From Leucoraja erinacea (taxonomy: Eukaryota), in assembly GCF_028641065.1 (NCBI RefSeq), contig NC_073378.1, positions 138,632,001 to 138,696,000 of the forward strand: a stretch of DNA of 64,000 nucleotides, in the 5' to 3' direction. A program made the translations under genes and the position numbers. This document shows, one piece after another, positions 708 to 59,925 of this stretch (position 1 is the first letter of the stretch; every line of letters starts with the position of its first letter). A model generated the notes under the pieces. It was not told the origin of the DNA and made no database searches. It worked only from the letters and a program-made list of their open reading frames with translations.

Positions 708-987
708 TAAACCTGGCGTCCGGAGCACCGGCGACCCAATCCAGCACGCATCGAAAGGCAGGTGCTGGGGGAGCCAACGACGGTGACAGCGACAGCGATT
801 TCAGGCATGGTTCATGCACGCGCACCCGTAACTCTAAGAACCCTTGGTGGAGAGTGGATCTAAAGGAAAGCTACAACGTGTCAGATGTAAGAATCACCAA
901 CAGAGCAGACTGCTGCATGGACCGGCTCCTAGGTGCCGAGATCCACATCGGGGACTCGCTAGAGAACGATGGTAATTCCAACAGACT
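708..987 (+). CDS. FTLD 1 exon A (N-terminal half)
   Basis: cag|TA AAC CTG GCG...AAC AGA CT|gtaagt, 280 nt open; NLASGAPATQSSTHRK..ANDGDSDSDFRHGSCTRT..NRADCCMDRL. Confidence 0.9.
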
Positions 988-1423
988 GTAAGTATCCAGA
1001 AGCAAACGCCGACTCTATTCAGACTGCTGCATGGTCAACATGATCAATGATAATGTGCGTGGGATTAAAAAGGGGTTGCAGGTTAAGACTGATCTAACTG
1101 CAGAAAAAAGCTAAAACGAATAACCGCCGATCTAGATGCGGGAGAATATAAGGCAGAGCCGGAGACTACTTATCCAGTAGTATCTGCTGTCGACGTATTT
1201 CCAAAGAGGTGCGGGTCAATTGAAGGAGATGTATATATCTGCAATTTAAGTTTATTTAAGTTATGTGATATTGAATAGTCGGATAGCAGTGGCAATGTTC
1301 TTGTGACGAATGACGATGCGTGAGGGATCATACAGTATCTACCCATGCAAGGTTACCTATGTATGCGGATCCTCTCCTGTGCCTACCTATCGGTTTGGAA
1401 GATGAGGAAGTATGTGTGTGTGG

Positions 1424-1425
<2 letters not shown>

Positions 1426-1460
<35 letters not shown>
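1426..1460. repeat. Poly-G tract inside a G-rich patch
   Basis: About 35 consecutive G followed by further GGG runs. Confidence 0.9.
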
Positions 1461-1461
<1 letters not shown>

Positions 1462-1627
1462 GGGTGGGAAGGAATGGTGGGAGGGGGGGGATACATAAGG
1501 CCACATCCCTCCCCACACATCCGATGAACGTATCTCCACTCCTCCAACACAGACCTATGATAACCTTTGTCACGCTCCTCATGAAGGAAGCATTGTTGTC
1601 TCAAATTTAAATCCTTATCTTTTTCAG

Positions 1628-1788
1628 ATGTGCGACCGTGGATTCGGTTTCTGCGACGACATTGACCTTCAATTGTGATGGATTTATCGGTCGATATGTG
1701 AACATCATCATCCCGGGCCAGGATAAAACTTTGACCCTGTGCGCTGTTGAGGTCTTTGGTTCAAAACTCCCGGACTTATATGGAAAAG
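1628..1788 (+). CDS. FTLD 1 exon B (short linker type)
   Basis: ttttcag|A TGT GCG...GGA AAA G|gtaggt, 161 nt; CATVDSV..FNCDGFIGRYVNIIIPG..LCAVEVFG. Confidence 0.88.
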
Positions 1789-2614
1789 GTAGGTTGAAGT
1801 TCCCGCTGAGGCTTTTGGTTGTACGCAGCCCCGCAACCTACTTGAACGAGGCTCCCGCTGAAGCACACGAGCACCTTTCTCAGCAAGCCACACATTGATA
1901 TTCATACTTTACTCGCTAGTCTCGGACACGAGCAGTATCCAAACTTGAACATGTCTACGAATAAAGTGGTTGGGACACTAGGTACACACCCCCTCATCCA
2001 TTCAGTCAGGGGACGTTATGCTGATTAATACCAGCCACGCACCAACGAATTGTACACGTACTGAAACACTCTTGAAGAGTATCCGCCCGCTATCAGACCA
2101 CTGACTGATCCACCCTTGAGTTGGTGCAATCCCGAAAAATTTAAGCGGTGTCAGTGCGGTTTTGGATATTCTGTATAGTCATACAGCTTCTTCTTCTTTC
2201 CGAGTCTACACACAGGATTTGAAGTTGTTTAGCCAGAGCTGAGCACACTTCTCGGCATCTGCATACAATGGTGTCTGTCTTGTCGTTTCTTGTGCTTCTT
2301 GTGCATGGTGGTGGAAACAGGGCCGTGACGTGAACGCACTTTCCTTGACGCCAGCCACGCAGCAAATACACTGTAACATCATATCATGCGATCTGTTATA
2401 GTGTTTACTTTGCCTGTTGCTCTAGTATGCGGATTCAATGCACTGACATAAAGTAAGATTTGACAGTGTCGTATAAACAAGTGTCTTTATAATCTCGCTT
2501 CACATGGTCACACAAAAGATATACGAATATTAAATACATTCACTGTTGATCAAAACCTTGATAGAACGTCGAAATCCATCGGCATTATATATCTCCCTTA
2601 CGGCTGAGTGGGTT

Positions 2615-2935
2615 GTCCAGGACAAGGGGTCACAGGTATGGATAGAGGGGAAATCCTTTAAGACCGAGATGAGAAAAACATTTTTCACACAGAGAGTGGT
2701 GAATCTCTGGAATTCTCTGCCACAGAAGATAGTTGAGGCCAGCCATTGGCTATATTTAAGAGGGAGTTAGATGTGGCCCTTGCGGCCAAAGGGATCAGGG
2801 GGTATGGAGAGAAGGCAGGTACGGGATACTGAGTTAGATGGTCAGCCATGATCATATTGAATGGCGGTGCAGGCTCGAAGGGCCGAATGGCCTACTCCTG
2901 CACCTATTTCTTTCTATGTATCTATGTAGCTATGT
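2615..2935 (+). mobile_element. 5'-truncated CR1 3' end
   Basis: [26 protein letters not shown] coding remnant, 3' UTR and TCTATGT tail matching the 17-22 kb element. Confidence 0.85.
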
Positions 2936-7994: not shown

Positions 7995-8660
7995 TCCAAT
8001 GTTGTATAGACTTTGGCTCAGTTCCTGTGGACTGGAGTGCAGCTTAAGTAACCCCACTTTTTAAGAAGGAGAGAGAGAGCAAATGGGGAATTATATAAAA
8101 TCAATCCTGACATCGGTAGCGGGGAAGATGCTTGAGTGAATTATTAAAGATGTAATAGCAACGCATTCGGAAAACAGTGACAGGATCGATCAAAGTCAGC
8201 ATGGATTTAAAAGGGGAAAATATGCTTGACTAATTTATTGAGGATATAACACGCAGAATGTACAAGGGAGAGACAGTGGATGTGGTATATCTGGATTTAA
8301 AAAAAACGCCTTTGCAAAGTCCCACACACGAGGTTAGCGTGCAAAAGTTGAGCACGTGGTATTGCGAGTAAGGTATTGATATGGCTAGATAACAGGTTGG
8401 CAGAGAACACGCAAAGAGTAGAGTTTAACGGGTCCTTTTCGGAATGGCAGGCAGTGGGGTTACGCAAGGTTCAGTGCTGAGACCCACTTTATTTACAATA
8501 TATATTGACGACTTAGACGAAGGAATTAAATGTCACATCTCGAAGTATGCGGATGACAAAAAGCTGGGTGGCAGTTTGAGATACCAGGAAGATGCTATGG
8601 GGATGCACGGTGACTTGGATAGGTTCAGTTGGTGGGCAGATGTATGACAGATGATGATTA
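7995..8660 (+). mobile_element. CR1 RT fragment (repeated in each tandem copy near 11470, 14930, 23170, 26630, 30070, 33530 and 36990)
   Basis: SGVTQGSVLRPTLFTIYIDDLDEGIKCHISKYADD remnant. Confidence 0.82.
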
Positions 8661-8725
8661 AAAAAATGCTTTCTTTTGCGTAGTGATCGAGATAGAGGAG
8701 TCTCACTTTCAAACATCTCTTTCAG

Positions 8726-9072
8726 CTGTGGGACCGTTGTTTCCGTTGCTTTGACGACAATTATCTTCAATTGTGATGGATTCATCGGTCGATATGTGAA
8801 CATTTTCTTGCCGGGACAGGATAAAATCTTGACCTTGTGCGAGGTTGAGGTCTTTACTTCAATACTTCCTACCATCGATACCTTGTTAAAACCGAAGCCG
8901 TATCCCCCTTCCGCACACGAAAGGGAAAAGCTAACCACCACCAATACCCCTTCACTAAAGGGAACGAAACAGCCGCCTTCATTTGGAAAAGAAACGACGC
9001 CCCAGTCAACAAAGGGAACGAAAATACCGTCCATACCTGGAACGACTATCCAGCCAAGAACCGGAAAAAAAG
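8726..9072 (+). CDS. FTLD 3 exon B with long linker
   Basis: tttcag|C TGT GGG...AAA AAA G|gtacgt, 347 nt in frame; 3' end assumes the upstream donor. Confidence 0.82.
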
Positions 9073-9284
9073 GTACGTTGCTATTGGGAGCGAATCTACC
9101 ATTGGGAACGGGGGAACAGGTAGACTCATCGCTTCGCCAAGACGTGGAGACATTCTCAGCAACAAAATATATCAGCCACTGGTACAATTTCCGGACGGAG
9201 GTAATCATGTTAGACCGAGATTTAGTCCCTTCCGGCTAAAACACAGCCCCCTCGTCTCTTTCTCAATGGCATGACATCTTATTC

Positions 9285-9850
9285 TGAATCTGTGCCCTCT
9301 GGTCCTAGATTCCCCCACAACTGGGAACGTGCTCTCTACATTCACACTATCCAAGCCTTTCAATGTCCGATAAGATTCAATGAGATCCCCAATAATCCAT
9401 TACTACTCCAGCGAATACAGGGCCCGGAACAGTCAGTGGGTCTCCATATGTTACCGTAATCATCCCAGCGATCACTCTCGTAATCCCCCACTGGACCCTC
9501 CACAATGCCAGCACATCTCAGATATGGGGCCGAAAACTGTTCACAATATTACAAATGCGCGCTGCCCAGTGCCTTTTACCCCCCTGCTTTAACATTCTAT
9601 CTCTCTGGATATAAATGCAAAGAATGAATTTGCCTTTCTTAACACCGGTTCAACTTGCAAATAAACATATTGGGAATCCAGCGCCAGCACTCCCAAGTCC
9701 ATTTGCACACCCGATTTCTGAATCACAAATGTGCCCTTCCTGAACAGAGCACTCGTCCTTGATGAGTACCCTGTTCCTGCTTTTTCCCCCAATATCCCTT
9801 GAATCCGTTATACCCGAGAGCTATAGCTTACTTTCACTTAAATGCATCTT
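9285..9850 (-). mobile_element. Old CR1 3' fragments in the B-A intron (present in each tandem copy)
   Basis: QMDLGVL..VYLQVE..RKANSFFAFISR remnant and [12 protein letters not shown]-type 3' end. Confidence 0.65.
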
Positions 9851-9885
9851 GCCTTTCGGCTCAGTGAGATGTTCCCTCTCCACAG

Positions 9886-10165
9886 GAAACGTGGCGGGGG
9901 GCGCAAGTCCGACCCAGTCCAGCACGGAAGAAGGGGCAGGCGCTGAAGGAGCCATTGACGGGAACAGCGACAGCGACTTCTGGAAAGGTTCATGCGCGCG
10001 CACCAGGAAATCCAAGGACCCTTGGTGGAGAGTCGATCTAAAATCAAGCAATTACGTGACAGATGTAAGAATCACCAACAGAGCAGACTGCTGCTCGGAC
10101 CAGCTCCTAGGAGCAGAGCTCCGCATCGGGGACTCGCTGGAAAACGATGGCAATTCCAACAGACT
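9886..10165 (+). CDS. FTLD 4 exon A
   Basis: cacag|GA AAC GTG...AGA CT|gtaagt, 280 nt. Confidence 0.88.
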
Positions 10166-10573
10166 GTAAGTGTTCTTAAGCAATCGCCGACTCAAGTCAC
10201 AAGCGTTGACTTCTTCTGAAATTTTCGCTGTTACTGGAGCAATGGTAATATCAGTGGGAAAAAGATAGTTGCTGCAGGATAACAATGATCTCACTGCACA
10301 TCAAATTAAAATTATTCTCCGCTGATCCATGGAAACATTGAAACCTAGAAAATAGGTGCAGGAGAAGACCATTCGCCACTTCGAGCTTGCACAGCCATTC
10401 ATTGTGATCATGGCTGATCGTCCCCTATAAATAACTCGTGTCTACCTTCTCCCCCTAGATTCCACTGGCCCCTAGAGCTCTATCTAAGTCCAGATGCGAG
10501 AGAAAATGATTCAGAGCCGTAGTCCAGTTATCCAATGACACGAGCCTTTATCGCACCTCAATAGCGGTGGGGT

Positions 10574-11308
10574 CATAGAAACATAGAAACATAGGTGCAG
10601 GAAGAGGCCATTCGGCCCTTCGAGCCAGCACCGCCATTCGTTGTGATCATGGCTGATCGTCCGCTATCAATCACCCGTGCCTGCCTTCTCCACATATCCC
10701 TTGATTACACTAGCCCCCAGAGCTCCACCTCACGTTCTCTTAAATCCATCCAGTGATTTGGCCTCCACTGCGCTCTGTGGCAGGGAATTCCATCAATTCA
10801 CAACTCTCTGGGTGAAAACGTGTTTTCTCACCTCAGTCTTGAATTACCTCCCCTTTATTCTAAGATTGTGGCCCCTGGTTCTAGACTCGCCCAACATTGG
10901 GAACAGTTTCCCTGCATCTAGATAGCCCAATCCTTTTAGAACTTTATATGTTTCTATATGATCCCCCTCCTCCTTCTAAATTCCACTGAATACAATCCTA
11001 ATCATTTTAATCAATCCTCGCATGACAGTCCCGCCTTCCCAGGGATCAATTTCGTGAACCTATGCTGCACCGCCTCAATCACAAGGATGTCCTTCCTCAA
11101 ATTAGGAGACCAAAACGGCACACAATACCCCAGATGTGGTCTCACCAGAGCGCTATTGAATTGCAGAAGAACCTCTTTTCGCCTATACTGAAATCCTCTT
11201 GTTATGAAAGCCAACATTCCATTAGCGTTCTTCACTGCCTGCCGTACTTGCACGCCAACTTTCAGTGCCCGGTGTACAAGGACGCCCAGGTCTTGCTACA
11301 CCTCCCCC
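10574..11308 (-). mobile_element. 5'-truncated CR1 (repeated near 14033, 22277, 25727, 29182, 32628 and 36084); a shorter CR1 tail piece lies at 10330-10487
   Basis: catagaaacatagaaac tail; [40 protein letters not shown] remnant. Confidence 0.85.
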
Positions 11309-12183
11309 TCAATGAAAGGAGATGCATTAATATATAATTTAAGTTAATTCAAGTTATGTAATGATGAACAATCTGATTGCGGTGGAAATAGTCAGGTAAT
11401 CAATGCCCATGAGTAAGGATCATGCAACATCTAGCCAGTCAATGCGGCCAACGTGCAGGAATGAACTACAGGATCAGTTCATGTGGATTGGCGTGCAGCT
11501 AATGTAACCCTACTTTTTAAGAGAGAATGCTGAGAGAAAACTGGGAATTATAGTCCACTTGTCTTGACATCCGTAGCGGGGAACATGCTTGAGTGAATTA
11601 TTAGAGATGTAATAGCAACGCATTCGGAAAGCAGTGACGGGATCGGTCAAAGTCAGCATGGTTTTAAAAGGGGAAATCATGCTTGACTAATTTATTGAGG
11701 ATATAACACGCAGAATGTACAAGGGAGAGACAGTGGATGTGGTATATCTGGATTTAAAAAAAACGCCTTTGCAAAGTCCCACACACGAGGTTAGCGTGCA
11801 GAAGTTGAGCACGTGGTATTGCGAGTAAGGTATTGATATGGCTAGCTAACAGGTTGGCAGAGAACACGCAAAGAGTAGAGTTTAAACGGGCCGTGTTCGG
11901 AATGGCAGGCAGTGGGGTTACGCAAGGTTCAGTGCTGAGACCCACTTTATTTACAATATATATTGACGACTTAGACGAAGCAATTAAATGTCACATCTCG
12001 AAGTATGCGGATGACAAAAAGCTGGGTGGCAGTTTGAGATACCAGGAAGATGCTATGGGGATGCACGGTGACTTGGATAGGTTCAGTTGGTGGGCAGATG
12101 TATGACAGATGATGATTAAAAAAATGCTTTCTTTTGCGTAGTGATCGAGATAGAGGAGTCTCACTTTCAAACATCTCTTTCAG

Positions 12184-12531
12184 CTGTGGGACCGTTGTTT
12201 CCGTTGCTTTGACGACAATTATCTTCAATTGTGATGGATTCATCGGTCGATATGTGAACATTTTCTTGCCGGGACAGGATAAAATCTTGACCTTGTGCGA
12301 GGTTGAGGTCTTTACTTCAATACTTCCTACCATCGATACCTTGTTAAAACCGAAGCCGTATCCCCCTTCCGCACACGAAAGGGAAAAGCTAACCACCACC
12401 AATACCCCTTCACTAAAGGGAACGAAACAGCCGCCTTCATTTGGAAAAGAAACGACGCCCCAGTCAACAAAGGGAACGAAAATACCGTCCATACCTGGAA
12501 CGACTATCCAGCCAAGAACCGGAAAAAAACG
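12184..12531 (+). CDS. FTLD 4 exon B, with a 1-nt insertion at its 3' end (frameshift or sequence error)
   Basis: Near-identical to exon B3 but GGAAAAAAAcG|gtacgt; 348 nt instead of 347. Confidence 0.7.
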
Positions 12532-13344
12532 GTACGTTGCTATTGGGAGCGAATCTACCATTGGGAACTGGAACAGGTAGACTCATCGCTTCGCCAAGAC
12601 GTGGAGACATTCTCAGCAACAAAATATATCAGCCACTGATACAATTTCCGGACGGAGGGAATCATGTTAGACCGAGATTTAGTCCCTTCCGGCTAAAACA
12701 CATCCCCCCTCGTCTCTTTCTCAATGGCATGACATCTTATTCTGAATCTGTGCCCTCTGGTCCTAGATTCCCCCACAACTGGGAACGTGCTCTCTACATT
12801 CACACTATCCAAGCCTTTCAATGTCCGATAAGATTCAATGAAATCCCCAATAATCCATTACTACTCCAGCGAATACAGGGCCCGGAACAGTAAGTGGGTC
12901 TCCATATGTTACCGTAATCAACCCAGCGATCACTCTCGTAATCCCCCACTGGACCCTCCACAATGCCAGCACATCTCAGATATGGGGCCGAAAACTGTTC
13001 ACAATATTACAAATGCGCGCTGCCCAGTGCCTTTTACCCCCCTGCTTTAACATTCTAGCTCTCTGGATATAAATGCAAAGAATGAATTTGCCTTTCTTAA
13101 CACCGGTTCAACTTGCAAATAAACATATTGGGAATCCAGCACCAGCACTCCCAAGTCCATTTGCACACCCGATTTCTGAATCACAAATGTGCCCTTCCTG
13201 AACAGAGCACTCGTCCTTGATGAGTACCCTGTTCCTGCTTTTTCCCCCAATATCCCTTGAATCCGTTATACCTGAGAGCTATAGCTTACTTTCACTTCAA
13301 TGCACCTTGCCTTTCGGCTCAGTGAGATGTTTCCGTCCCCACAG

Positions 13345-13624
13345 AAAACGTGGCGTGGGGAGCAAGTCCGACCCAGTCCAGCACGGAAGAAGGAGCAGGC
13401 GCTGAAGGAGCCATTGACGGGAACAGCGACAGCGACTTCTGGAAAGGTTCATGCGCGCGCACCAGGAAATCCAAGGACCCTTGGTGGAGAGTCGATCTAA
13501 AATCAAGCAATTACGTGACAGATGTAAGAATCACCAACAGAGCAGACTGCTGCTCGGACCAGCTCCTAGGAGCAGAGCTCCGCATCGGGGACTCGCTGGA
13601 AAACGATGGCAATTCCAACAGACT
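13345..13624 (+). CDS. FTLD 5 exon A
   Basis: cacag|AA AAC GTG...AGA CT|gtaagt, 280 nt. Confidence 0.88.
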
Positions 13625-15645
13625 GTAAGTGTTCTTAAGCAATCGCCGACTCAAGTCACAAGCGTTGACTTCTTCTGAAATTTTCGCTGTTACTGGAGCA
13701 ATGGTAATATCAGTGGGAAAAAGATAGTTGCTGCAGGATAACAATGATCTCACTGCACATCAAATTAAAATTATTCTCCGCTGATCCATGGAAACATTGA
13801 AACCTAGAAAATAGGTGCAGGAGAAGACCATTCGCCACTTCGAGCTTGCACAGCCATTCATTGTGATCATGGCTGATCGTCCCCTATAAATAACTCGTGT
13901 CTACCTTCTCCCCCTAGATTCCACTGGCCCCTAGAGCTCTATCTAAGTCCAGATGCGAGAGAAAATGATTCAGAGCCGTAGTCCAGTTATCCAATGACAC
14001 GAGCCTTTATCGCACCTCAAAAGCGGTGGGGTCATAGAAACATAGACACATAGGTGCAGGAAGAGGCCATTCGGCCCTTCGACGCAGCACCGCCATTCAT
14101 TGTGATCATGGCTGATCGTCCGCTATCAATCACCCGTGCCTGCCTTCTCAACATATCCCTTGACTACACTAGCCCCCAAAGCTCCACCTAACGTTCTCTT
14201 AAATCCATCCAGTGATTTGGCCTCCACTGCGCTCTGTGGCAGGGAATTCCATCAATTCACAACTCTCTGGGTGAAAACGTGTTTTCACACCTCAGTCTTG
14301 AATTACCTCCCCTTTATTCTAAGATTGTGGCCCCTGGTTCTAGACTCGCCCAACATTGGGAACAGTTTCCCTGCATCTAGATAGCCCAATCCTTTTAGAA
14401 CTTTATATGTTTCTATATGATCCCCCTCCTCCTTCTAAATTCCACTGAATACAATCCTAATCATTTTAATCAATCCTCGCATGACAGTCCCGCCTTCCCA
14501 GGGATCAATTTCGTGAACCTATGCTGCACCGCCTGAATCACAAGGATGTCCTTCCTCAAATTAGGAGACCAAAACGGCACACAATACCCCAGATGTGGTC
14601 TCACCAGAGCCCTATTGAATTGCAGAAGAACCTCTTTTCGCCTATACTGAAATCCTCTTGTTATGAAAGCCAACATTCCATTAGCGTTCTTCACTGCCTG
14701 CCGTACTTGCACGCCAACTTTCAGTGACCGGTGTACAAGGACGCCCAGGTCTTGCTGCACCTCCCCCTCAATGAAAGGAGATGCATTAATATATAATTTA
14801 AGTTAATTCAAGTTATGTAATGATGAACAATCTGATTGCGGTGGAAATAGTCAGGTAATCAATGCCCATGAGTAAGGATCATGCAACATCTAGCCAGTCA
14901 ATGCGGCCAACGTGCAGGAATGAACTACAGGATCAGTTCATGTGGACTGGCGTGCAGCTAATGTAACCCTACTTTTTAAGAAAGGATGCTGAGAGAAAAC
15001 TGGGAATTATAGTCCACTTGTCTTGACATCGGTAGCGGGGAACATGCTTGAGTGAATTATTAGAGATGTAATAGCAACGCATTCGGAAAGCAGTGACAGG
15101 ATCGGTCAAAGTCAGCATGGATTTAAAAGGGGAAATCATGCTTGACTAATTTATTGAGGATATAACACGCAGAATGGATAAGGGAGAGATAGTGGATGTG
15201 GTATATCTGGATATTAAAAAAAAAAACGCCTTTGCAAAGTCCCACACACGAGATTAGCGTGCAAAATTTGAGCACATGGTATTGCGACTAAGGTATTGTT
15301 ATGGCTAGAGAACAGGTTGGCACAGAACACGCAAAGAGTAGAGTTTAACGGGTCCTTTTCGGAATGGCAGGCAGTGGGGTAACGCAAGGTTCAGTGCTGA
15401 GACCCACTTTATTTACAATATATATTGACGACTTAGACGAAGGAATTAAATGTCACATCTCGAAGTATGCGGATGACAAAAAGCTGGGTGGCAGTTTGAG
15501 ATACCAGGAAGATGCTATGGGGATGCACGGTGACTTGGATAGGTTCAGTTGGTGGGCAGATGCATGACAGATGATGATTAAAAAAATGCATTCTTTTGCG
15601 TAGTGATCGAGATAGAGGAGTCTCACTTTCAAACATCTCTTTCAG

Positions 15646-15992
15646 CTGTGGGACCGTTGTTTCCGTTGCTTTGACGACAATTATCTTCAATTGTGATGGA
15701 TTCATCGGTCGATATGTGAACATTTTCTTGCCGGGACAGGATAAAATCTTGACCTTGTGCGAGGTTGAGGTCTTTACTTCAATACTTCCTACCATCGATA
15801 CCTTGTTAAAACCGAAGACGTATCCCCCTTCCGCACACGAAAGGGAAAAGCTAACCACCACCAATACCCCATCACTAAAGGGAAAGAAACAGCCGCCTTC
15901 ATTTGGAAAGGAAACGACGCCCCAGTCAACAAAGGGAACGAAAATACCGTCCATACCTGGAACGACTATCCAGCCAAGAACCGGAAAAAAAG
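15646..15992 (+). CDS. FTLD 5 exon B with long linker
   Basis: 347 nt to AAG|gtacgt; alternative in-frame donor at 16037. Confidence 0.83.
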
Positions 15993-16804
15993 GTACGTTG
16001 CTATTGGGAGCGAATCTACCATTGGGAACTGGAACAGGTAGACTCATCGCTTCGCCAAGACGTGGAGACATTCTCAGCCACAAAATATATCAGCCACTGA
16101 TACAATTTCCGGACGGAGGGAATCATGTTAGACCGAGATTTAGTCCCTTCCGGCTAAAACACATCCCCCCTCGTCTCTTTCTCAATGGCATGACATCTTA
16201 TTCTGAATCTGTGCCCTCTGGTCCTAGATTCCCCCACAACTGGGAACGTGCTCTCTACATTCACACTATCCAAGCTTTTCTATGTCCGATAAGATTCAAT
16301 GAAATCCCCAATAATCCATTACTACTCCAGCGAATACAGGGCCCGGAACAGTCGGTGGATCTCCATATGTTACCGTAATCATCCCAGCGCTCACTCTCGT
16401 AATCCCCCACTGGACCCTCCACAATGCCAGCACATCTCAGATATGGGGCCGAAAACCGTTCACAATATTACAAATGCGCGCTGCCCAGTGCCTTTTACCC
16501 CCCTGCTTTAACATTCTAGCTCTCTGGATATAAATGCAAATAATGAATTTGCCTTTCTTAACACCGGTTCAACTTGCAAATAAACATATTGGGAATCCAG
16601 CACCAGCACTCCCAAGTCCATTTGCACACCCGATTTCTGAATCACAAATATGCCCTTCCTGAACAGAGCACTCGTCCTTGATGAGTACCCTGTTCCTGCT
16701 TTTCCCCCCAATATCCCTTGAATCCGTTATACCTGAGAGCTATAGCTTACATTCACTTAAATGCATCTTGCCTTTCGGCTCAGTGAGATGTTCCCTCTCC
16801 ACAG

Positions 16805-17084
16805 AAAACGTGGCGTGGGGAGCAAGTCCGACCCAGTCCAGCACGGAAGAAGGGGCAGGCGCTGAAGGAGCCATTGACGGGAACAGCGACAGCGACTTCT
16901 GGAAAGGTTCATGCGCGCGCACCAGGAAATCCAAGGACCCTTGGTGGAGAGTCGATCTAAAAGAAAGCTATTACGTGACAGAAGTAAGAATCACCAACAG
17001 AGCAGACTGCTGCTCGGACCAGCTCCTAGGAGCAGAGCTCCGCATCGGGGACTCGCTGGAAAACGATGGCAATTCCAACAGACT
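16805..17084 (+). CDS. FTLD 6 exon A
   Basis: cacag|AA AAC GTG...AGA CT|gtaagt, 280 nt. Confidence 0.88.
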
Positions 17085-17227
17085 GTAAGTGTTCTTAAGC
17101 AATCGCCGAGTCAAGTCACAAGCGTTGACTTAGAAACATAGAAACATAGAAATTAGGTGCAGGAGTAGGCCATTCGGCCCTTCGAACCTGCACCGCCATT
17201 TAATATGATCATGGCTGATCATCCAAC

Positions 17228-20201
17228 TCAGTATCCCGTACCTGCCTTTTCTCCATACCCTCTGATCCCCTTGGCCACAAGGGCCACATCTAACTCCCTC
17301 TTAAATATAGCCAATGAACTGGCCTCAACTACCCTCTGTGGCAGAGAGTTCCAGAGATTCACCACTCTCTGTGTGAAAAAAGGTCTCCTCATCTCGGTTT
17401 TTTAAAGGATTTCCCCCTTATCCTTAAGCTGTGACCCCTTGTCCTGGACTTCCCCAACATCGGAAACAATCTTCCTGCATCTAGCCTGTCCAACCCCTTA
17501 AGAATTTTGTAAGTTTCTATAAGATCCCCTCTCAATCTCCTAAACTCTAGAGAGTATAAACCAAGTCTATCCAGTCTTTCTTCATAAGACAGTCCTGACA
17601 TCCCAGGAATCAGTCTGGTGAACCTTCTCTGCACTCCCTCTATGGCAATAATGTCCTTCCTCAGATTTGGAGACCAAAACTGCACGCAATACTCCAGGTG
17701 TGGTCTCACCAAGACCCTATACAACTGCAGTAGAACCTCCCTGCTCCTATACTCAAATCCTCTTGCTATGAAGGCCAACATGCCATTCGCTTTCTTTACT
17801 GCCTGCTGCACCTGCATGCCTACCTTCAATGACTGGTGTACCATGACACCCAGGTCTCGCTGCATCTCCCCGTTTCCCAATCGGCCACCGTTTAGATAAT
17901 AATCTGCTTTCCCGTTTTTTTGGCACCAAGATGGATAACCTCACATTTATCCACATTAAACTGCATCTGCCAAACATTTGCCCACTCACCCAGCCTATCC
18001 AAGTCACCTTGCAGTCTCCTAGCATCCTCCTCACACCTAACACTGCCCCCCAGCTTAGTGTCATCCGCAAACTTGGAGATATTGCCTTCAATTCCCTCAT
18101 CCAGATCATTAATATATATTGTAAATAGCTGGGGTCCCAGTACTGAGCCTTGCGGTACCCCACTAGTCACTGCCTGCCATTGTGAAAAGGACCCGTTTAC
18201 TCCTACTCTTTGCTTCCTGTTTGCCAGCCAGTTCTCTATCCACATCAATACTGAACCCCCAATGCCATGTGCTTTAAGTTTGTATACTAATCTCTTATGT
18301 GGGACCTTGTCGAAAGCCTTCTGGAAGTCCAGATACACCACATCCACTGGTTCTCCCCTATCCACGCTACTAGTTACATCCTCGAAAAATTCTATAAGAT
18401 TCGTCAGACATGATTTACCTTTCGTAAATCCATGCTGACTTTGTCCAATGATTTCACCACTTTCTAAATGTGCTGCTATCCCATCTTTAATAACTGACTC
18501 TAGCAGTTTCCCCACTACCGATGTTAGGCTAACTGGTCTGTAATTCCCCGTTTTCTCTCTCCCTCCCTTCTTAAAAAGTGGGGTTACGTTTGCTACCCGC
18601 CAATCCTCTGGAACTACTCCAGAATCTAAGGAGTTTTGAAAGATTATTACTAATGCATCCACTATTTCTGGAGCTACTTCCTTAAGTACTCTAGGATGCA
18701 GCCTATCTGGCCCTGGGGATTTATCGGCCTTTAATCCATTCAATTTACCCAACACCACTTCCCGACTAACCTGGATTTCACTCAATTCCTCGCGGGCCCC
18801 TGCTATTTCCGGCAGATCATTTATGTCTTCCTTAGTGAAGACGGAACCAAAGTAGTTATTCAATTGGTCCGCCATATCCTGGTTCCCCATGATCAACTCA
18901 CCTGTTTCTGACTGCAAGGGACCTACATTTGTTTTAACTAATCTCTTTCTTTTCACATATCTATAAAAACTTTTGTAGTCAGATTTTATGTTCACTGCCA
19001 GTTTTCTTTCATAATCCATTTTTCCTTTTCTAATTAAGCCCTTCGTCCTCCTCTGCTGGTCTCTGAATTTCTCCCAGTCCTCCGGTATGCTGCTTTTTCT
19101 GGCTAGTTTGTACGCATCATCCTTTGCTTTGATACTATCCCTGATTTCCCTTGTTATCCATGGATGCACTACCTTCCCTGATTTATTATTTTGCCAAACT
19201 GGGATGAACAATTTTTGTAGTTCATCCATGCAGTCTTTAAATGCCTTCCATTGCATATCCACCGTCAACCCTTTTAGAATTAATTGCCAGTCAATCTTGG
19301 CCAATTCACGTCTCATACCCTCAAAGTTACCTTTCTTTAAGTTCAAAACCATTGTTTCTGAATTAACAATGTCACTCTCCATCCTAATGAAGAACTCAAC
19401 CATATTATGGTCACTCTTGCCCAAGGGGCCACGCACAACAAGACTACTAACTAACCCTTCCTCATTACTCAATACCCAGTCTAAAATAGCCAGCTCTCTC
19501 GTTGGTTCCTCTACATGTTGGTTTAGATAACTATCCCGTATACATTCCAAGAAATCCTCTTCCTCAGCACCCCTGCCAGTTTGATTCACCCAATCTATAT
19601 GTAGATTGAAGTCACCCATTATAACTGCTTTGCCTTTGTCGCAAGCATTTCTAATTTCCTGTTTGATGCCATCCCCAACTTCACTACTACTGTTAGGTGG
19701 CCTGTACACAACACCCACCAGCGTTTTCTGCCCCTTATTGTTTCGCAGCTCTACCCATACCGATTCCACATCCTCCAAACTAATGTCCTTCCTTTCCATT
19801 GCGTTAATCTCCTCTCTAACCTGCAACACTACCCCACCTCCTTTTCCTTTCTCTCTATCCCTCCTGAATATTGAATATCCCGGGATGTTCAGCTCCCAGC
19901 CTTGGTCACCCTGGAGCCATGTCTCCGTGATCCCAACTATATCATAATCATTAATGGCTATCTGCACGTTCAACTCATCCACCTTATTACGAATACTCCT
20001 TGCATTGAGACACAAAGCCTTCAGGCTTGTTTTTACAACGCTCTTACCCCTTATACAATTATGTTGAAAAGTGGCCCTTTTTGATTTTTGCCCTGGTTTT
20101 GTCTGCCTGCCACTTTTACTTTTCACCTTGCTACCTATTGCTTCTACCTTCATTTTACACCCCCCTGCCCCTCTGCTCTTGTACCCATCCCCCTGCCACA
20201 T
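17228..20201 (-). CDS. CR1 ORF2 (APE endonuclease + reverse transcriptase); two frameshifts in A-runs near the 3' end
   Basis: [61 protein letters not shown]; continues via ORF 17389-17880 to TEMRR..GTGY* at 17228. Confidence 0.88.
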
Positions 20202-21152
20202 TAGTTTAAATCCTCCCCGACAGCAGTAGCACACACCCCCCCAAGGACATTGGTTCCATTCCATTCCAGGTGCAGACCGTCCTGTTTGTACTGGTCCCAC
20301 CTCCCCCAGAACTGGTTCCAATGCCCTAAAAATTTTAATCCCTCCCCCTTGCACCATTTTTCAAGCCACGTATTCATCTGCAATATCCTCCTATTTCTGC
20401 TCTGACTGGCCCGTGGTACTGGTAGTAATCCAGAGATTATTACCTTTGAGGTCCTACTTTTAAGCTTATCTCCTAGCTCCCTAAATTCATCCTTTAGGAC
20501 CTCATCCCTTTTTTTACCTATATCGTTGGTGCCAATATGCACCACGACAACTGGCTGTTCACCCTCCCCCTCCAGAATGTTCTGCAGCCGTTCAGTGACA
20601 TCCCTGACCCTTGCACCAGGGAGGCAACATACCATCCTGGAGTCTCTTTTGCGGCCGCAGAAACGCCTATCTATTCCCCTGACAATTGAATCCCCTATTA
20701 CTATTGCCCTTCCACTCTTTCCCCCCCCCCCCCTCATGTGCCGCAGAGCCACCCATGGTGCCATGAACTTGGCTGCTGCTGCATTCCCCTGATGAGCAAT
20801 CTCCCTCAACAGTTTCCAAAATGGTATACCTGTTTAGGAGGGAGATGACTGCAGGGGACTCCTGCACTACCTGCCTACTGCTTTGCTGACTATTGGCCAC
20901 CCGTTCCCCTTCCGTCCTCTTACCTTTTACCTGCGGTGTGACCAACTCACTGTACGTGCTGTCCACGACTTTCTCAGTGTCGTGGATGCTCCAGTATGAA
21001 TCCAACCGCAGCTCCAATCGTTCAATGCGGTCTGCCAGGAGCTGCAGCTGTACACACTTCCTGCAAACATAGTCACCAGGGACACCGACCATATCCCTGA
21101 TCTCCCACATGTTGCAGGCTGAGCAAACCACGGGGCCAATCTCCACCGACAT
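20201..21152 (-). CDS. CR1 ORF1 (CxxC..CxxC zinc finger, leucine zipper, SGNH/GDSL esterase); one frameshift in the homopolymer at 20721-20733
   Basis: ORF 20667-21152 ([30 protein letters not shown]) continues in ORF 20201-20809 ([28 protein letters not shown]). Confidence 0.85.
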
Positions 21153-21232
21153 ATCCTACTCCCAATTTAACTATATTAAATATTGAAAAACACAAAACTT
21201 TATCTGTTAAACTTTACTAATAAATACTGTAC

Positions 21233-21301
21233 CCTTATCTCCCAGAATCCTTATCTCCCAGAATCCTTATCTCCCAGAATCCTTATCTCCCAGAATCCTT
21301 A
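21233..21301. repeat. 16-bp minisatellite x4.3 in the LINE 5' UTR
   Basis: ccttatctcccagaat repeated four times plus cctta. Confidence 0.9.
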
Positions 21302-21387
21302 GCCTAAAGGCAAAAATGTAAAAATGTAAACCAATCAGAGGCTTCCCCCAGACTCCTTCTCTGGAACGTTTGCGTTTTGGTCGCAGG

Positions 21388-21912
21388 TTACAGCGCAGGT
21401 ACTCCTCCCCTCTCACCAACGGCTCCCTGGGCCTCTGTGGAAACAAGCCCCGCGGTGTATTTTATACTTACAGCGCAGGTACTCCTCCCCTCTCACCAAC
21501 GGCTCCCTGGGCCTCTGTGGAAACAAGCCCCGCGGTGTATTTTATACTTACAGCGCAGGTACTCCTCCCCTCTCACCAACGGCTCCCTGGGCCTCTGTGG
21601 AAACAAGCCCCGCGGTGTATTTTATACTTACAGCGGTACTCCTCCCCTCTCTCGGCAACGGCTCCCTGGGCCTCTGTGGAAACAAGCCCCGCGGTGTATT
21701 TTATACTTACAGCGCAGGTACTCCTCCCCTCTCACCAACGGCTCCCTGGGCCTCTGTGGAAACAAGCCCCGCGGTGTATTTTATACTTACAGCGCAGGTA
21801 CTCCTCCCCTCTCACCAACGGCTCCCTGGGCCTCTGTGGAAACAAGCCCCGCGGTGTATTTTGTACTTACAGCGCAGGTACTCCTCCCCTCTCTCGGCAA
21901 CGGCTCCCTGGG
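21388..21912 (-). repeat. About 6.5 tandem 80-bp monomers at the 5' end of the CR1 LINE
   Basis: + strand unit ttacagcgcaggtactcctcccctctcaccaacggctccctgggcctctgtggaaacaagccccgcggtgtattttatac repeats with 80-bp period. Confidence 0.92.
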
Positions 21913-23880: not shown

Positions 23881-24227
23881 CTGTGGGACCGTTGTTTCCG
23901 TTGCTTTGACGACAATTATCTTCAATTGTGATGGATTCATCGGTCGATATGTGAACATTTTCTTGCCGGGACAGGATAAAACCTTGACCTTGTGCGAGGT
24001 TGAGGTCTTTACTTCAATACTTCCTACCATCGATACCTTGTTAAAACCGAAGACGTATCCCCCTTCCGCACACGAAAGGGAAAAGCTAACCACCACCAAT
24101 ACCCCTTCACTAAAGGGAAAGAAACAGCCGCCTTCATTTGGAAAGGAAACGACGCCCCAGTCAACAAAGGGAACGAAAATACCGTCCATACCTGGAACGA
24201 CTATCCAGCCAAGAACCGGAAAAAAAG
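23881..24227 (+). CDS. FTLD 6 exon B with long linker
   Basis: tttcag|C TGT...AAG|gtacgt, 347 nt. Confidence 0.83.
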
Positions 24228-25039
24228 GTACGTTGCTATTGGGAGCGAATCTACCATTGGGAACTAGAACAGGTAGACTCATCGCTTCGCCAAGACGTGG
24301 AGACATTCTCAGCCACAAAATATATCAGCCACTGATACAATTTCCGGACGGAGGGAATCATGTTAGACCGAGATTTAGTCCCTTCCGGCTAAAACACATC
24401 CCCCCTCGTCTCTTTCTCAATGGCATGACATCTTATTCTGAATCTGTGCCCTCTGGTCCTAGATTCCCCCACAACTGGGAACGTGCTCTCTACATTCACA
24501 CTATCCAAGCCTTTCAATGTCCGATAAGATTCAATGAAATCCCCAATAATCCATTACTGCTCCAGCGAATACAGGGCCCGGAACAGTCAGTGGATCTCCA
24601 TATGTTACCGTAATCATCCCAGCGATCACTCTCGTAATCCCCCATGGACCCTCCACAATGCCAGCACATCTCAGATATGGGGCCGAAAACCGTTCACAAT
24701 ATTACAAATGCGCGCTGCCCAGTGCCTTTTACCCCCCTGCTATAACATTCTAGCTCTCTGGATATAAATGCAAATAATGAATTTGCCTTTCTTAACACCG
24801 GTTCAACTTGCAAATAAACATATTGGGAATCCAGCACCAGCACTCCCAAGTCCATTTGCACACCCGATTTCTGAATCACAAATATGCCCTTTCTGAACAG
24901 AGCACTCGTCCTTGATGAGTACCCTGTTCCTGCTTTTTCCCCCCAATATCCCTTGAATCCGTTATACCTGAGAGCTATAGCTTACATTCACTTAAATGCA
25001 TCTTGCCTTTCGGCTCAGTGAGATGTTCCCTCTCCACAG

Positions 25040-40001: not shown

Positions 40002-40179
40002 GTAAATATACATACGCGATCGCCGATTCTATTCACCTGCGGTGACTTATTTTGCAAATGCCACTGTTACTGGAGCAATGGTCACATGCGTGGGTGAAAG
40101 AGAGAGATGCTGCGGGGTACGTATTACTTCACTGCAGATACAATTAAGTTTTTGCTCCACCGCTCAAGATGCGTAACAC

Positions 40180-44335: not shown

Positions 44336-44446
44336 CTGTGGAATCTTTGACTCAGTTTCGGGGACTTCAATTGGGGTGGATCTATCGGTCGCTATGTGAA
44401 CGTCATCATCACAGGAAAATGTTTTTACCCTGTGCGAGATTGAGAA
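44336..44446 (+). pseudogene. Decayed exon B (pseudo-exon), frameshifted and truncated by a CR1 fragment
   Basis: tttcag|CTGTGGAATC..ATCGGTCGCTATGTGAACGTCATCATC..ACCCTGTGCGAGATTGAG with internal deletions and a premature TGA; no donor. Confidence 0.82.

Positions 44447-53540: not shown

Positions 53541-53591
<51 letters not shown>
53541..53591. repeat. Poly-C tract
   Basis: About 51 consecutive C just upstream of the collapsed relic. Confidence 0.9.
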
Positions 53592-56645: not shown

Positions 56646-57266
56646 GGCGGCATACACGATACGACACGCCGGAGGCGCGCAAAGAATGTATGCCCAACAA
56701 AATCCTGGAGCGCGGCGCGATACCGCGCGGAACTCCATACTCCTCCGCGCTTCTCCATGCGACCGTCCCGCGCGGCCCACACGCTACCAGTGCGCCTCAA
56801 CGCGACGAGGTCGCGTAAATGTGCGCAAATGATGGCCAAGTGAGACAGGTATCCAGTGGCTAGTATTAAGCATCATGCCCGCTCGGTCCACTCAGGGCTA
56901 TCTTTGTGTGTGTGGGAACGAAATGCAGATGCAGGTTTCAACCGAATTTAGACATAAAAAGCTAGAGTAACTCATCCGATCGGAGAGCAACTCTGGAGAA
57001 AAAGTATAGCAGACGTTTCGGGTAGAGAACCTTCTTCAGTCTCCAGGGACGATGTCTGACCCGGAACGCTACTTATCTATTCGCAACATCTGTTGTTCCG
57101 AACAGGAGCAAGATGATACGATGCCGTCAATTGCCACGGGAGCACCACATATCACCGGAACGTGTCATAATTGCACTACAACAGGCCTATGGTAACTTTT
57201 GACACGCTTCCTCATACGCACGATCGAGACAATGGAATCTTACCTTTACATACTCATCTTTTTTAG

Positions 57267-57427
57267 CTGTGGAATCGTTGATTCTGTTTCTGTGACGACA
57301 TTGACTTTCAATTGTGGTGGATATGTCGGTCGATATGTGAACATCATCATCCCAGGCCCGGATCAAATCTTAACCCTGTGTGAGGTTGAGATATTTGGTG
57401 CAAAACTCCCGCACTTCCGTGGAAAAG
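57267..57427 (+). CDS. FTLD 14 exon B (short)
   Basis: ttttag|C TGT GGA...AAA G|gtaggc, 161 nt. Confidence 0.87.
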
Positions 57428-57659
57428 GTAGGCTGAATCCGCTGCGGCTCCGCCGCACAGCTTACTTGAGCGAGTCTTCCGCTGATAACGTTTGAGAATA
57501 ATTACATCACTGAAGACAAGTACCGGAATCCCCAACGTTCTGCTCTTTGTAATTCTTAGTTTAATCGCCAGTCTTTCACACTACATTTGTCCAAGCACGA
57601 GCCTGTCTACGAGTGCAATATATGAGAGACTCGCCGCACATGCTCACATCCTTTCAGTC

Positions 57660-58180
57660 AGAGAAATAGAAACATTGAAAATAGGTAGCTGGTCCAGTCC
57701 TTGTATAATTTTATATGTTTCGATATGATGAGATCCCCCTCATCTTTCTAAACTCTAGTGAATACAAGCCTAGTCTTTTCAATCGTTCCTCATATGACAG
57801 TCCCGCCATCCCAGGGATCAATCTTGTCAACCTACTCTGCACTGCTTCAATCACAAGGATGTCGTTCCGCAAATTCGTAGGCCAAAACTGTACGCAATAC
57901 TCCAAATGTGGTCTCACCAGAGCCCTATACAACTGCAGAAGAACCTTTTTACTCCTATACTGAAATCCTCTTGTTATGAAGGCCAATATTCCATTAGTTT
58001 TCGTCACTGCCTGCTGTACCTGCACGTCAACTTTCAGTGGCCAGTGTACAAGGACAACCAGGTCTCGCTGTACCTCCCCTCTTATCTAACTTAACCCCAT
58101 TGAGATAATAATCTGCACCCTTGTTTTTGCCACAAAAGAGGATAACCTCACATGTGTCTATATTTTATTGCATCTGCCAC
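57660..58180 (-). mobile_element. CR1 3' fragment with internal deletion
   Basis: [38 protein letters not shown]. Confidence 0.82.
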
Positions 58181-58774
58181 GCTTCAGCCACGCGACCTAA
58201 TACTAATAAGCACCATCCCCGCACCAACGAAATGCACATCTCATGGAACACGCTTGGAGATTACCACCCTACTGTCAGATTATGTAACGGTCCTATCTTG
58301 AAATGCCGTGTAACCTTATTACTTTAACGCCTCAGTGCGGTGTTGGGTCTTTTTTCCATAACCGTAAATCCATTACACTGTGACACCATATCATGAAATC
58401 TATTGATTTTTCTACTTTATCTGTTCCTTGATTTGATTAGATTTGATAGTGGAGACGAGGGCATTCACTTCTTCGCGCTTCATTTGACCATAGTAAAGCA
58501 ACGCACAGCATCACATACTAGTTGAGCGAGCCTCCAGCTGATTTTGCTTTTCACTTTACCTGTTGCTCTTGTGCAAGGCTTCATAGAGATGATGTGTGAT
58601 ATGATTTGAGTGGATGGTACAAACACGGGTTTCCACTGCATCTTACATCACTTGGGATACTAAAGCAATACTTATATCAATTAAATACGTTGATCCAAAC
58701 CGTGATAGAAAGCCTACATCCGTCGGCATTTAATATCGCCCTTGCGGTTCAGTGAGGTTTTTCCTTACGAACAG

Positions 58775-59054
58775 AAAATGTGGCTTTCGGAAAACCGTCG
58801 ACCCAGTCCAGCGCGTATCGATGGGCAGGTGCTAGGCGAGCCAATGACGGTAACAGCGATACCGATTTCACGCATGGTTCATGCACACGCACCTGGAAAT
58901 CCAAGAACCCTTGGTGGAGAGTCGATCTATTAGAGATCTTCAACGTGTCAGATGTACGAATCACCAACAGAGCAGACTGCTGCTCGGACCGGCTCCGTGG
59001 AGCGGAGATCCGCATCGGGAACTCACTGGCGAACGATGGCAATTCTAACGGACT
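58775..59054 (+). CDS. FTLD 15 exon A
   Basis: aacag|AA AAT GTG...GGA CT|gtgagt, 280 nt; NRADCCSDRL. Confidence 0.88.
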
Positions 59055-59764
59055 GTGAGTATTCAGGAGCAAACGCCGACTCTATTCAGTTGCGGTGTCT
59101 TATTTTGTAAGTCCCATTGTTGCTGGAGCAGTGACGACACACGTGGGAAGTAGAGTGAAGCTGCAGGTTATGGCCGATCTAAATGCAGAACGCTGAATCT
59201 GAGAACACAACCCAGATGCGAGAGAAAATGACATGGAGCCGCAGTCCACATATTTGGTGTCACGACCTGCTGATGTACTTCCAGATCAATGGACTACCTT
59301 CAATAAAATAAGATCAGTATATTTGTAGACAAGTGCTGTAGAAACTCAAAGGGTGCAGCAGCATCTATGGAGCGAAGGAAATATGTAATATTTCGGGCCG
59401 AAACCATTCTTCAAGTCCTCTGCAGTTATCTGCTGTACCTTCTTAAATTAGTCAAAGCATTTGTAAATGAAATTCATTCAAGTTATGTAGTATTGAGCAA
59501 TCTGATGGCAGTAGCAATTTTCACCGATCGTGCAGTCCCTACCCAGACAAGGTTCCCTCTGTATCCGGACCCTCTCCTGTTCTTAGCTACCTTTTCAGGA
59601 CGGAAGCAAGTGGGCAGGATGCCTGAGGTAGCCGCAGGAGCCCCCTACATCCAAGGAATATGTCTCCAGTTCACCAACGCAGGACTATGAGAACGTTTGA
59701 CATGCTTCCTCGTCGGCATGACCGAAACAGTGGAGTCTCACTTTTTAATCCTCATCTCTTTCAG

Positions 59765-59925
59765 CTGTGGAATCGTTGATTCAGTTTCTGTGACGAAATT
59801 GATCTTCAATTGTGGTGGACTTGTCGGTCGATATGTGAACATCATCATCCCGGGCCAGAAGAAAATATTGCACCTGTGCGAGGTTGAGATCTTCGGTACG
59901 GAACACCCGTCTTTACCTGGAACAG
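59765..59925 (+). CDS. FTLD 15 exon B (short)
   Basis: tttcag|C TGT GGA...GGA ACA G|gtacgc, 161 nt; ILHLCEVEIFG. Confidence 0.87.

Follow-up and report, generated by a model that had tools for sequence, protein, structure and literature searches.

The window analysed here, a stretch of 64,000 nucleotides from a skate (database label Leucoraja erinacea), lies within a locus in which 65 coding exons, spread across 135 kb, encode 32 F-type lectin domains (FTLDs). All 65 exons correspond to a signal peptide, an FTLD or a linker, and the product of the array would comprise about 5,380 aa (16,147 coding nt). Each domain is split over two exons, here called A and B, and the 15 A+B pairs of the window, all on the + strand, represent domains 13-27 of the array. 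The intron between domains 12 and 13 (1..707) is followed by domain 13 (A 708-987, B 1628-1788), with an Arg-Arg-Arg pocket and an 8-aa linker, domain 14 (A 2949-3228, B 5130-5467), with a 67-aa Pro/Thr/Ser-rich linker, and domain 15 (A 6955-7234, B 8726-9072), with a 70-aa linker and a B exon that is the first of a recent repeat. Domain 16 (A 9886-10165, B 12184-12531) contains a frame break as assembled. Domains 17-21 (A 13345-13624, 16805-17084, 25040-25319, 28495-28774 and 31941-32220; B 15646-15992, 23881-24227, 27336-27682, 30782-31128 and 34237-34583) all have an Arg-Arg-Gln pocket and 70-aa linkers. They precede domain 22 (A 35396-35675, B 37949-38382), whose 99-aa linker contains 24-nt repeats, and domain 23 (A 39722-40001, B 47741-47901), within whose 7.7-kb intron lie pieces of mobile elements and a damaged copy of B. 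Domains 24-27 (A 48677-48956, 51659-51938, 54408-54687 and 58775-59054; B 49739-49899, 52727-52887, 57267-57427 and 59765-59925) have 8-aa linkers, and the intron before domain 28 fills the rest of the window (59926..64000).

Most of what a sequence-only reading of the window had described was recovered: 280-nt A exons with AG/GT ends (15/15), B exons with an AG acceptor and a G|GT donor (15/15), six cysteines in each domain (15/15) and about 8.37 kb of coding sequence (8,368 nt computed) with neither a start nor a stop exon, to which can be added that no exon contains an in-frame stop. The 16th domain expected beyond the window also exists. The array had moreover been called phase-locked, a description that fails once, at the domain 16 B exon, which is 348 nt long versus 347 nt in its six sister copies. 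That reading also overlooked a damaged additional B exon, a series of seven almost identical 3.46-kb units and the missing fucose triad, all described below. When one A exon was searched by tblastn against the 14 other copies of the window, E values ranged from 1e-35 to 1e-44, far beyond chance, and the proposed profile check placed Pfam PF22633 and PF00754 above cut-off in 3/3 A exons tested; 3/3 B exons tested had no Pfam match.

Extent of the array and its two ends

Extension of the window both ways, also suggested by that reading, yielded one signal exon upstream and one terminal exon downstream. The signal-peptide exon, located by an exon scan on the + strand (G000:C2:138584411-138584477, window -47589..-47523, 47.6 kb upstream of the window), is the first coding exon; it encodes 22 residues that are hydrophobic according to our own hydropathy scan (not SignalP) and ends in a phase-1 donor. 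It probably splices to A1, the first of the 12 A+B units (domains 1-12) that extend on the + strand from C2:138585400. Downstream, the A exons of domains 28-32 start at window-equivalent positions 64110, 65969, 67816, 70804 and 85533 (+), and the terminal exon ends in TGA (window-equivalent 87315-87489, C2:138719315-138719489, +, 23.5 kb downstream of the window), with an AATAAA poly(A) signal at 87639, 150 nt after the stop. A strict scan for signal exons (+ strand, 264 kb) returned a single candidate that does not overlap known exons, located 0.9 kb upstream of A1, and a relaxed scan added one weak candidate within the intron A1-B1; the scan is insensitive, with a candidate for only 4/12 other FTL gene starts (3-9 kb of upstream sequence each).

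The G|GT donor ends all 31 internal B exons and only B32 ends in a stop. The core of this donor is invariant in 23/23 representative units, the following intron positions being ~60-80% conserved, and many of the B-to-A introns measure just 0.2-0.8 kb. It seems likely that the B exons splice to the next A exon to form one mRNA. Since A+B pairs are multiples of three with phase-1 ends (31/32 pairs as assembled), duplicated units keep the frame. Shorter transcripts are possible, as an AATAAA lies within 600 nt of the read-through stop in 14/31 internal B exons. The sole strongly hydrophobic stretch of the predicted product is its N-terminus; a membrane or GPI anchor was ruled out because the C-terminus is not hydrophobic. 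Pro/Thr/Ser-rich linkers of 33-99 aa follow 11-12 of the domains (14-22 and 28-30; nine in the window), and the long ones contain 36-44% Pro+Thr+Ser, suggestive of O-glycosylated spacers. Altogether, the genomic anatomy and the collinearity with thorny skate domains (see below) support a single giant gene that would encode a secreted beads-on-a-string protein.

Recent expansion and frame break

A recent tandem expansion (8015..37629, +) consists of seven copies of a 3.46-kb B+A unit with ~97% identity among them; a LINE-like piece and an 80-nt tandem repeat break the series at 17131-21912. An assembly artefact was rejected: depth in a DNA run reached 117 over one B copy of the repeat versus 17.6-25.1 for seven single-copy contigs (5.7 times), and the seven copies differ by 166 substitutions, mostly intronic. 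No extra copy of the repeat was found elsewhere in the assembly. Units 15-21 also offer a B donor at 392 nt, but the 347-nt donor was used because the 392-nt one has a weaker consensus and is out of phase in 2/7 copies. Two further duplicates lie in introns: a relic B exon (44337..44445, +), outside the reading frame, with a deletion and its 3' end cut off, and a lone duplicate of B31 within a 2,406-bp duplication (99.75% identity) that may be an artefact.

B16 carries one extra C right before the donor, so that as assembled a stop is reached at codon 2,582 of the spliced sequence; the 16,147 coding nt contain no other break. The extra base is either an assembly error or a real mutation. In the aligned stretch with B16, 3/3 private indels are 1-nt insertions, as is typically seen where repeats in long-read assemblies were poorly polished; moreover, a DNA-run contig at 5.7 times the single-copy depth crosses the B donor without a gap, although contigs drop variants and 13 further indel entries exist. 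The break may stem from an error of the assembly or from an allele that is rare, or the 209-codon unit 16 may be skipped in splicing, in which case the product would have 5,172 aa and a single, terminal stop.

Domain chemistry and conservation

An AlphaFold2 model of domain 25 (P0071), the one domain of the 32 that was folded, has the F-type fold (pLDDT ≥90 in 99/197 residues, low only at the intron-derived ends); its best PDB matches in Foldseek are striped bass FBP32 (3cqo, rmsd 1.6 Å) and eel agglutinin (1k12). The fucose motif of the family is HX24RXDX4(R/K), corresponding to His52, Arg79 and Arg86 (PMC5712786, section 8). This triad is complete in none of the 32 skate domains: His52 occurs in 1/32, Arg79 in 29/32 and Arg86 in 6/32. 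His52 is replaced by Arg in 25 domains, and the commonly seen pockets are Arg-Arg-Gln (14/32) and Arg-Arg-Arg (4/32). The loop next to the pocket has a net charge of at least +3 in 17/32 skate domains versus 0/882 non-skate domains (median -1), the latter being a redundant, non-independent set. The h2DGx calcium motif reads DGN or DGD in 28/32 domains, DSN in domain 22 and DGT in domain 23, and is absent from the degenerate C-terminal domains 31 and 32; domains 28-30 lack Arg79. The vicinal Cys82-Cys83 pair is present in 32/32 domains, and six cysteines are found in 30/32 units, seven in units 1 and 32; the conserved ones probably form the core disulfide pairs. From these residues, the Arg-rich pocket is predicted to bind glycans that are sulfated or carry other acidic groups. 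A literature search for mutational data on an Arg-Arg-Gln pocket yielded no paper.

In the thorny skate, five models map in order to domains 2-15, to one copy of the 16-22 class and to domains 23-25, with 84-98% identity, and the pocket residues of both skates are identical in 17/18 pairs. The median dN/dS is 0.46 (231 pairs, 22 A exons), and the seven recent copies contain one exonic indel versus 5.7 expected from the intron rate (P ~0.02). The exons are under purifying selection. Diversifying selection on the loops is not claimed: only loop 1 exceeds dS (1.23), in pairwise, non-independent comparisons.

The skate array is alike in sequence to the eel agglutinin AAA (E 6e-25) and to FBP32/MsFTL1 (E 2e-44), with which it shares the fold, the calcium motif, the vicinal cysteines, the two-exon domains and the signal peptide. 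It differs from these trimer-forming proteins of one and two domains, respectively, by its 32 domains, its lack of the triad, its basic pocket loop, its mucin-like linkers and its two degenerate C-terminal domains. Tandem FTLDs produced by exon duplication, as in the skate, are also found in the Xenopus pentraxin fusion protein (five FTLDs), zebrafish FTLs (2-5) and oyster bindins (1-5), some isoforms of which also lack the triad (PMC5712786). The skate array has six times more domains than these described proteins, and neither a pentraxin nor any other partner domain was seen in it.

The sequence-only reading had stated that well-characterised vertebrate FTLs have few FTLDs. This holds in reviews, the largest number named in passages of PMC5712786 and PMC12221842 being five, but not in databases, which contain predicted proteins of 11-29 domains: tailed frog (P0122, 29), mackerel (P0123, 20), pikeperch (P0121, 18), tammar wallaby (P0124, 18), conger (P0163, 13) and sawshark (P0160, 11). 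Like the skate product, they consist of FTLDs alone, apart from the signal peptide and short tail that several possess. Giant size by itself is not unique to the skate, even if its array is the longest found (database proteins of up to 5,000 aa were covered). Most of them keep the triad, as in the tailed frog (29/29), sawshark (10/11) and conger (11/13); the pikeperch pocket is Val/Ile-Arg-Arg, unlike that of the skate, and only the wallaby giant resembles the skate in both full triad loss and long linkers. In a quick tree, the sampled domains of these giants group by lineage and not by position, so the expansions look independent or homogenised. The literature searches listed no paper on the skate gene or on any FTL in which the tandem domains exceed five. 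Longer arrays may be recorded in the principal survey of these lectins (Bishnoi et al. 2015).

Scenarios for the product and its function

Several scenarios may explain this locus. RefSeq divides it into at least six small models (197-502 aa), similar to the five thorny skate fragments, and a group of separate small F-type lectin genes could also agree with the many ordinary FTL genes at the chromosome end and the low sensitivity of the signal-exon scan. Yet none of the six models starts with a signal peptide (by eye), their starts lie mid-domain or in intron sequence and most of them run through a conserved donor at their end; together with the short B-to-A introns and the lack of a second DNA copy of the signal exon in the locus, this makes a cluster quite improbable. 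A truncated or decaying gene, in which B16 truly has the extra base, leaving a product of 16 domains or one lost to nonsense-mediated decay, would fit the assembled stop, the intronic B relic and B31 duplicate, and the RNA data. In three same-species RNA runs (tissue not given; about 5, 1 and 3% of the respective runs covered), depth was 0-0.25 in the bins containing B21, A23, B23 and A25, none of the 15 listed joints (1,303 more exist) joined exons, the runs having essentially no exon coverage from which joints could be read, and the reads at 34100-53500 mapped to mobile-element pieces only. A look-up for window 47600-49950 listed no RNA data set containing it, which speaks neither for nor against expression. 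No Logan-derived protein among the best 120 of 311 and 120 of 624 matches corresponded to the skate exons, the three compared being 46-53% identical to skate and from other animals. Nevertheless, the uniqueness of the break, the insertion pattern around it and the ungapped contig (with the reservation made above) speak against decay, as does the fact that the domains downstream of B16 are equally constrained and conserved in the thorny skate; we give this scenario little credence.

The remaining scenarios accept one giant secreted protein. It could be a structural scaffold or filament of disulfide- and calcium-stabilised beads whose sugar binding was lost. The absence of the triad, of Arg79 in domains 28-30 and of the calcium motif in domains 31-32 agrees with this, since such changes may mean lost sugar recognition (PMC5712786, section 8), as does the predicted wallaby protein, also without triads and with long linkers; the seventh cysteines, in domain 32 and in the first linker, could link chains. 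A scaffold is nonetheless unlikely, as the replacement is non-random (among expanded-clade representatives, Arg52 in 16/18, Arg79 in 17/18 and Cys-Cys in 18/18) and the basic loop is not seen in other FTLs. Somewhat less probable still is a multivalent agglutinin of innate immunity in which binding to fucosylated glycans is retained, Arg52/Gln86 being a possible swap of His52/Arg86 that would leave two arginines on the sugar. Most domains do have two or three pocket arginines, loop 1 varies fastest, as in isoform-diverse FTLs, and the O-glycans of little skate skin mucus are 91.5% fucosylated (PMC10532229), but the family motif occurs in 0/32 domains, and the tailed frog, sawshark and conger giants, which keep it, indicate that large size needs no triad loss. 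Of the multivalent lectin-like chain proposed from sequence alone, the single secreted gene is supported by its anatomy, not by the RNA runs, and its nature as a fucose-type lectin is doubtful.

Our preferred explanation, held tentatively and at somewhat less than an even chance, is that the 65-exon array yields one mRNA and a secreted 32-FTLD chain whose non-fucose pockets bind acidic glycans and cross-link glycoproteins of mucus or egg jelly. The array would have grown by unequal crossing-over of whole intron-exon units, and the triad-less pockets, with their basic loop, would grip sulfated or other acidic glycans at a putative mucosal or egg-coat location, as the sequence-only reading had also proposed. 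The RNA runs, the frame break as assembled, the RefSeq models, the AATAAA signals behind internal B exons and the insensitivity of the signal-exon scan count against this explanation. Gel-forming mucins and FCGBP-like mucus proteins are defined by vWD and cystine-knot domains and long PTS regions, all of which the skate array lacks. The chain is a candidate partner for the unusual sulfated and fucosylated glycans of skate mucus, 41.7% of whose O-glycans are sulfated, including Fuc-(SO3)Gal (PMC10532229).

In a wider and more doubtful scenario, giant secreted poly-F-type proteins with 11-32 domains would have arisen several times among vertebrates (sharks, skates, teleosts, frog and marsupial) and form an undescribed class, the skate member of which was hidden by fragmented annotation. 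That skate protein, the longest found, would have had its pocket rewired to an Arg-rich sulfated-glycan site and would cross-link elasmobranch mucus or egg jelly as a non-mucin of half a megadalton and variable length. The FTLs described so far are small agglutinins that bind fucose and have one to five domains; a conserved member with 32 of them, whose pocket has changed systematically, would extend the family in size and chemistry. Annotation cuts such genes into plausible "fucolectin-like" fragments, so FTL gene counts in cartilaginous fishes may be inflated and real proteins missed. Were the gene silent or only structural, it would still illustrate clearly how domains are born and die through tandem duplication that preserves the frame.

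F-type domains do occur in secretions. Catshark skin mucus contains an FTP-domain protein (PMC10707392), and ranaspumins 3-5 of the tungara frog foam nest, which are single-domain proteins and a functional analogy only, resemble the prediction for the skate in that their sugar specificity is altered: Rsn-4 is inhibited by lactose and galactose, not fucose, and the foam-nest fucolectins have been proposed to cross-link a carbohydrate matrix (PMC2674504).

Extent, frame and expression of the array

The 15 A and 15 B exons that the sequence-only reading placed on the + strand of the window, the two exons of each F-type lectin domain (FTLD), were all recovered with a uniform 280-nt A exon and AG/GT boundaries. 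The B exons measure 161-434 nt (n = 15) and the pairs comprise 8,368 nt of coding sequence, in agreement with the ~8.37 kb claimed. The expectation of further domains past the window was also correct. Exon mapping in the window and in 100 kb of N-free flank on either side delimits an array of 32 A+B units (window-equivalent positions -46600 to 87489, + strand), and the proposed extension both ways found a signal-peptide exon upstream and a terminal exon downstream. In a strict scan of 264 kb of the + strand, a single signal-peptide exon appeared outside the known exons, 0.9 kb 5' of A1. A G|GT donor closes the 31 internal B exons (31/31), TGA ends B32 alone, and an AATAAA lies 150 nt past this stop. 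The controls for these signals are partial: the scan recovered the signal exon in 4 of 12 other FTL gene starts, and 4 of 13 B exons from other FTL genes carry a strict-consensus donor at 158-161 nt, each followed by another A exon; none of the four control B exons lying last in their block carries one. The 32-unit array is very probably one transcription unit. A TATAAA is found ~120 nt 5' of the signal ATG (window-equivalent about -47710), and an AG acceptor 3 nt 5' of the ATG (-47592). Since this acceptor adjoins the ATG, a non-coding first exon farther upstream is possible.

The proposed phase lock holds in that A exons end in phase 2, B exons in phase 1 and pairs comprise whole codons, but unit 16 breaks the rule. 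Its B exon (12184-12531) has 348 nt versus 347 nt in six sister copies, and 20 codons on the spliced frame runs into a stop; this is the sole frame break in 16,147 coding nt. The aligned stretch holding B16 contains three private indels, each a single-base insertion, which suggests that a polishing error is behind the extra base. The RefSeq model P0228 reads straight through the break. With all units in frame, the gene would have 65 coding exons and encode 5,381 aa, and it is probable that this full-length product is present in the species. Alternatively, skipping of unit 16 would restore the frame, giving a form of 5,172 aa and 560 kDa that has a single stop and lacks any membrane segment.

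In three same-species RNA runs (tissue not given), depth is 0-0.25 in the bins containing B21, A23, B23 and A25, hundreds of reads cover mobile-element pieces, and none of the 15 read joints listed connects two exons of the gene. The gene is off or very low in these samples. The B-to-next-A splicing is therefore still inferred.

Conservation and annotation of the locus

The giant gene is real, conserved and mis-annotated. In RefSeq the locus is split among six or more models 197-502 aa long, whose starts fall mid-domain or in intron sequence. Five thorny skate models map in the same order to domains 2-15, a single copy from the 16-22 class and domains 23-25; identities are 84-98%, and in a quick tree most pair with the skate domains as sisters. 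Two Rhinoraja models have a similar array with its own expansion. Since thorny skate matches in order and Rhinoraja has a like array, most of the array is older than these genera. Read depth shows that the seven 3.46-kb copies arose recently: in a DNA run, one B copy of this unit is covered at 5.7 times the single-copy level. Paralogous A exons have a median dN/dS of 0.46, and the recent copies differ by 23 substitutions and 1 indel in exons (4.4 kb) and by 143 and 14 in introns (10.9 kb), four alignment-edge indels being left out. These values show that the exons are under constraint.

Domain identity, binding pocket and possible function

The F-type identity of the domains was supported by the profile check, PF22633 and PF00754 both scoring above their cut-offs in 3/3 A exons tested. 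Among solved sequences FBP32 and eel agglutinin come nearest, and these two are likewise the best structure matches of a predicted model of domain 25. Except for domains 31-32, the domains retain the calcium motif and their full set of cysteines. The family motif consists of His52, Arg79 and Arg86 (PMC5712786), and this complete triad occurs in 0/32 domains. Position 52 is Arg instead of His in 25/32; the commonest pocket state, in the order of the triad, is Arg-Arg-Gln (14/32), followed by Arg-Arg-Arg (4) and Arg-Ile-Gln (3). Domain 25 has the first of these states, domain 13 the second and domain 28 the third; domain 4 reads His-Arg-Leu. The giant gene is F-type by fold but lacks the fucose motif, and it is therefore not classed as a fucose lectin. 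The pocket state is identical in 17 of 18 thorny skate orthologues; with loop divergence at ~10%, this conservation may be regarded as suggestive, not significant. Among the 882 non-skate domains in the matches, a redundant set, the triad is present in 483 and Arg-Arg-Gln in two, both from the predicted wallaby protein P0124, and a net charge of at least +3 over the seven residues from position 52 is seen in 17/32 skate versus 0/882 non-skate domains.

Linkers rich in Pro/Thr/Ser/Lys (33-99 aa) follow twelve domains (14-22 and 28-30), and linkers of 8-10 aa the others. The most likely reading, though as a whole slightly less probable than its negation, is a secreted chain that cross-links the acidic glycans of a secretion: many weak basic sites would grip such glycans, this multisite binding would cross-link the secretion, and the long linkers would act as glycosylated spacers. 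Little skate skin mucus has abundant sulfated O-glycans, among them a Fuc-(SO3)Gal unit (PMC10532229), catshark skin mucus contains an FTP-domain protein (PMC10707392), sulfated mucins are reported from a catshark oviducal gland (PMC8471067), and an adhesive cyprinid egg envelope shows an increased level of a fucolectin (PMC9513835); these reports have no bearing on the giant gene's own tissue.

Other long arrays and neighbouring sequences

The view that vertebrate F-type lectins have few FTLDs stands for two reviews (PMC5712786 and PMC12221842), which in the text consulted name at most five tandem domains, but not for database predictions, which reach 29. Among the papers listed in literature searches, which did not cover the main family survey, none deals with the giant gene or with longer arrays. 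Uncharacterised predictions have 29 (tailed frog), 20 (mackerel), 18 (pikeperch and wallaby), 13 (conger and amphioxus) and 11 (sawshark) domains, and none of the proteins searched, up to 5,000 aa, has an array as long as that of the skate gene. Since sampled domains of the giant predictions group by lineage, long arrays seem to have repeatedly arisen or been homogenised. The tammar wallaby P0124 (3,176 aa, 18 predicted domains, signal peptide, 0 triads, linkers of 23-69 aa) has the same architecture as the skate gene; none of the papers listed in the literature searches concerns it. The pikeperch P0121 has Val/Ile for His throughout its 18 domains and eight cluster members, the tailed frog P0122 has 29 domains, every one canonical, and the mackerel P0123 alternates His and Ala over its 20. 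Median internal identity in the P0121, P0122 and P0123 arrays is 92-99%, and these expansions are very recent or homogenised. The changed pocket and the overlooked class are of more interest than size alone.

A genome search for the A exon yielded 71 candidates, of which 67 were matches; 63 lie in the terminal 3 Mb of contig C2 (NC_073378.1). A subtelomeric cluster at C2:136.76-139.60 Mb holds 31 more A-exon matches beyond the giant gene, distributed over genes with about 1-4 domains each; some, including several ordinary FTL genes, retain His-Arg-Arg and many do not. Blocks at 138.91 and 139.56 Mb resemble a segmental duplication, and the A translations of two genes (136.90 and 136.98 Mb) are identical. 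Within the array, a second recent triplication (window-equivalent 64110-68906) comprises domains 28-30 in 1.85-kb units with identical A translations, Ile for Arg79 and 33-aa linkers. A 2,406-bp tandem duplication of 99.75% identity (window-equivalent 71826-76636) yields an extra B31 that has no A exon of its own; this copy could serve as a mutually exclusive exon, or the duplication could be false. The broken B exon at 44337-44445 of the window adjoins a mobile-element insertion and is a relic of a lost unit. The introns of the window also contain an open frame of 822 codons within a LINE-like piece (17895-20360, - strand), 16-nt and 80-nt tandem repeats (21233-21912), a 47-nt G-rich run (1422-1468) and a 51-nt C run (53541-53591).
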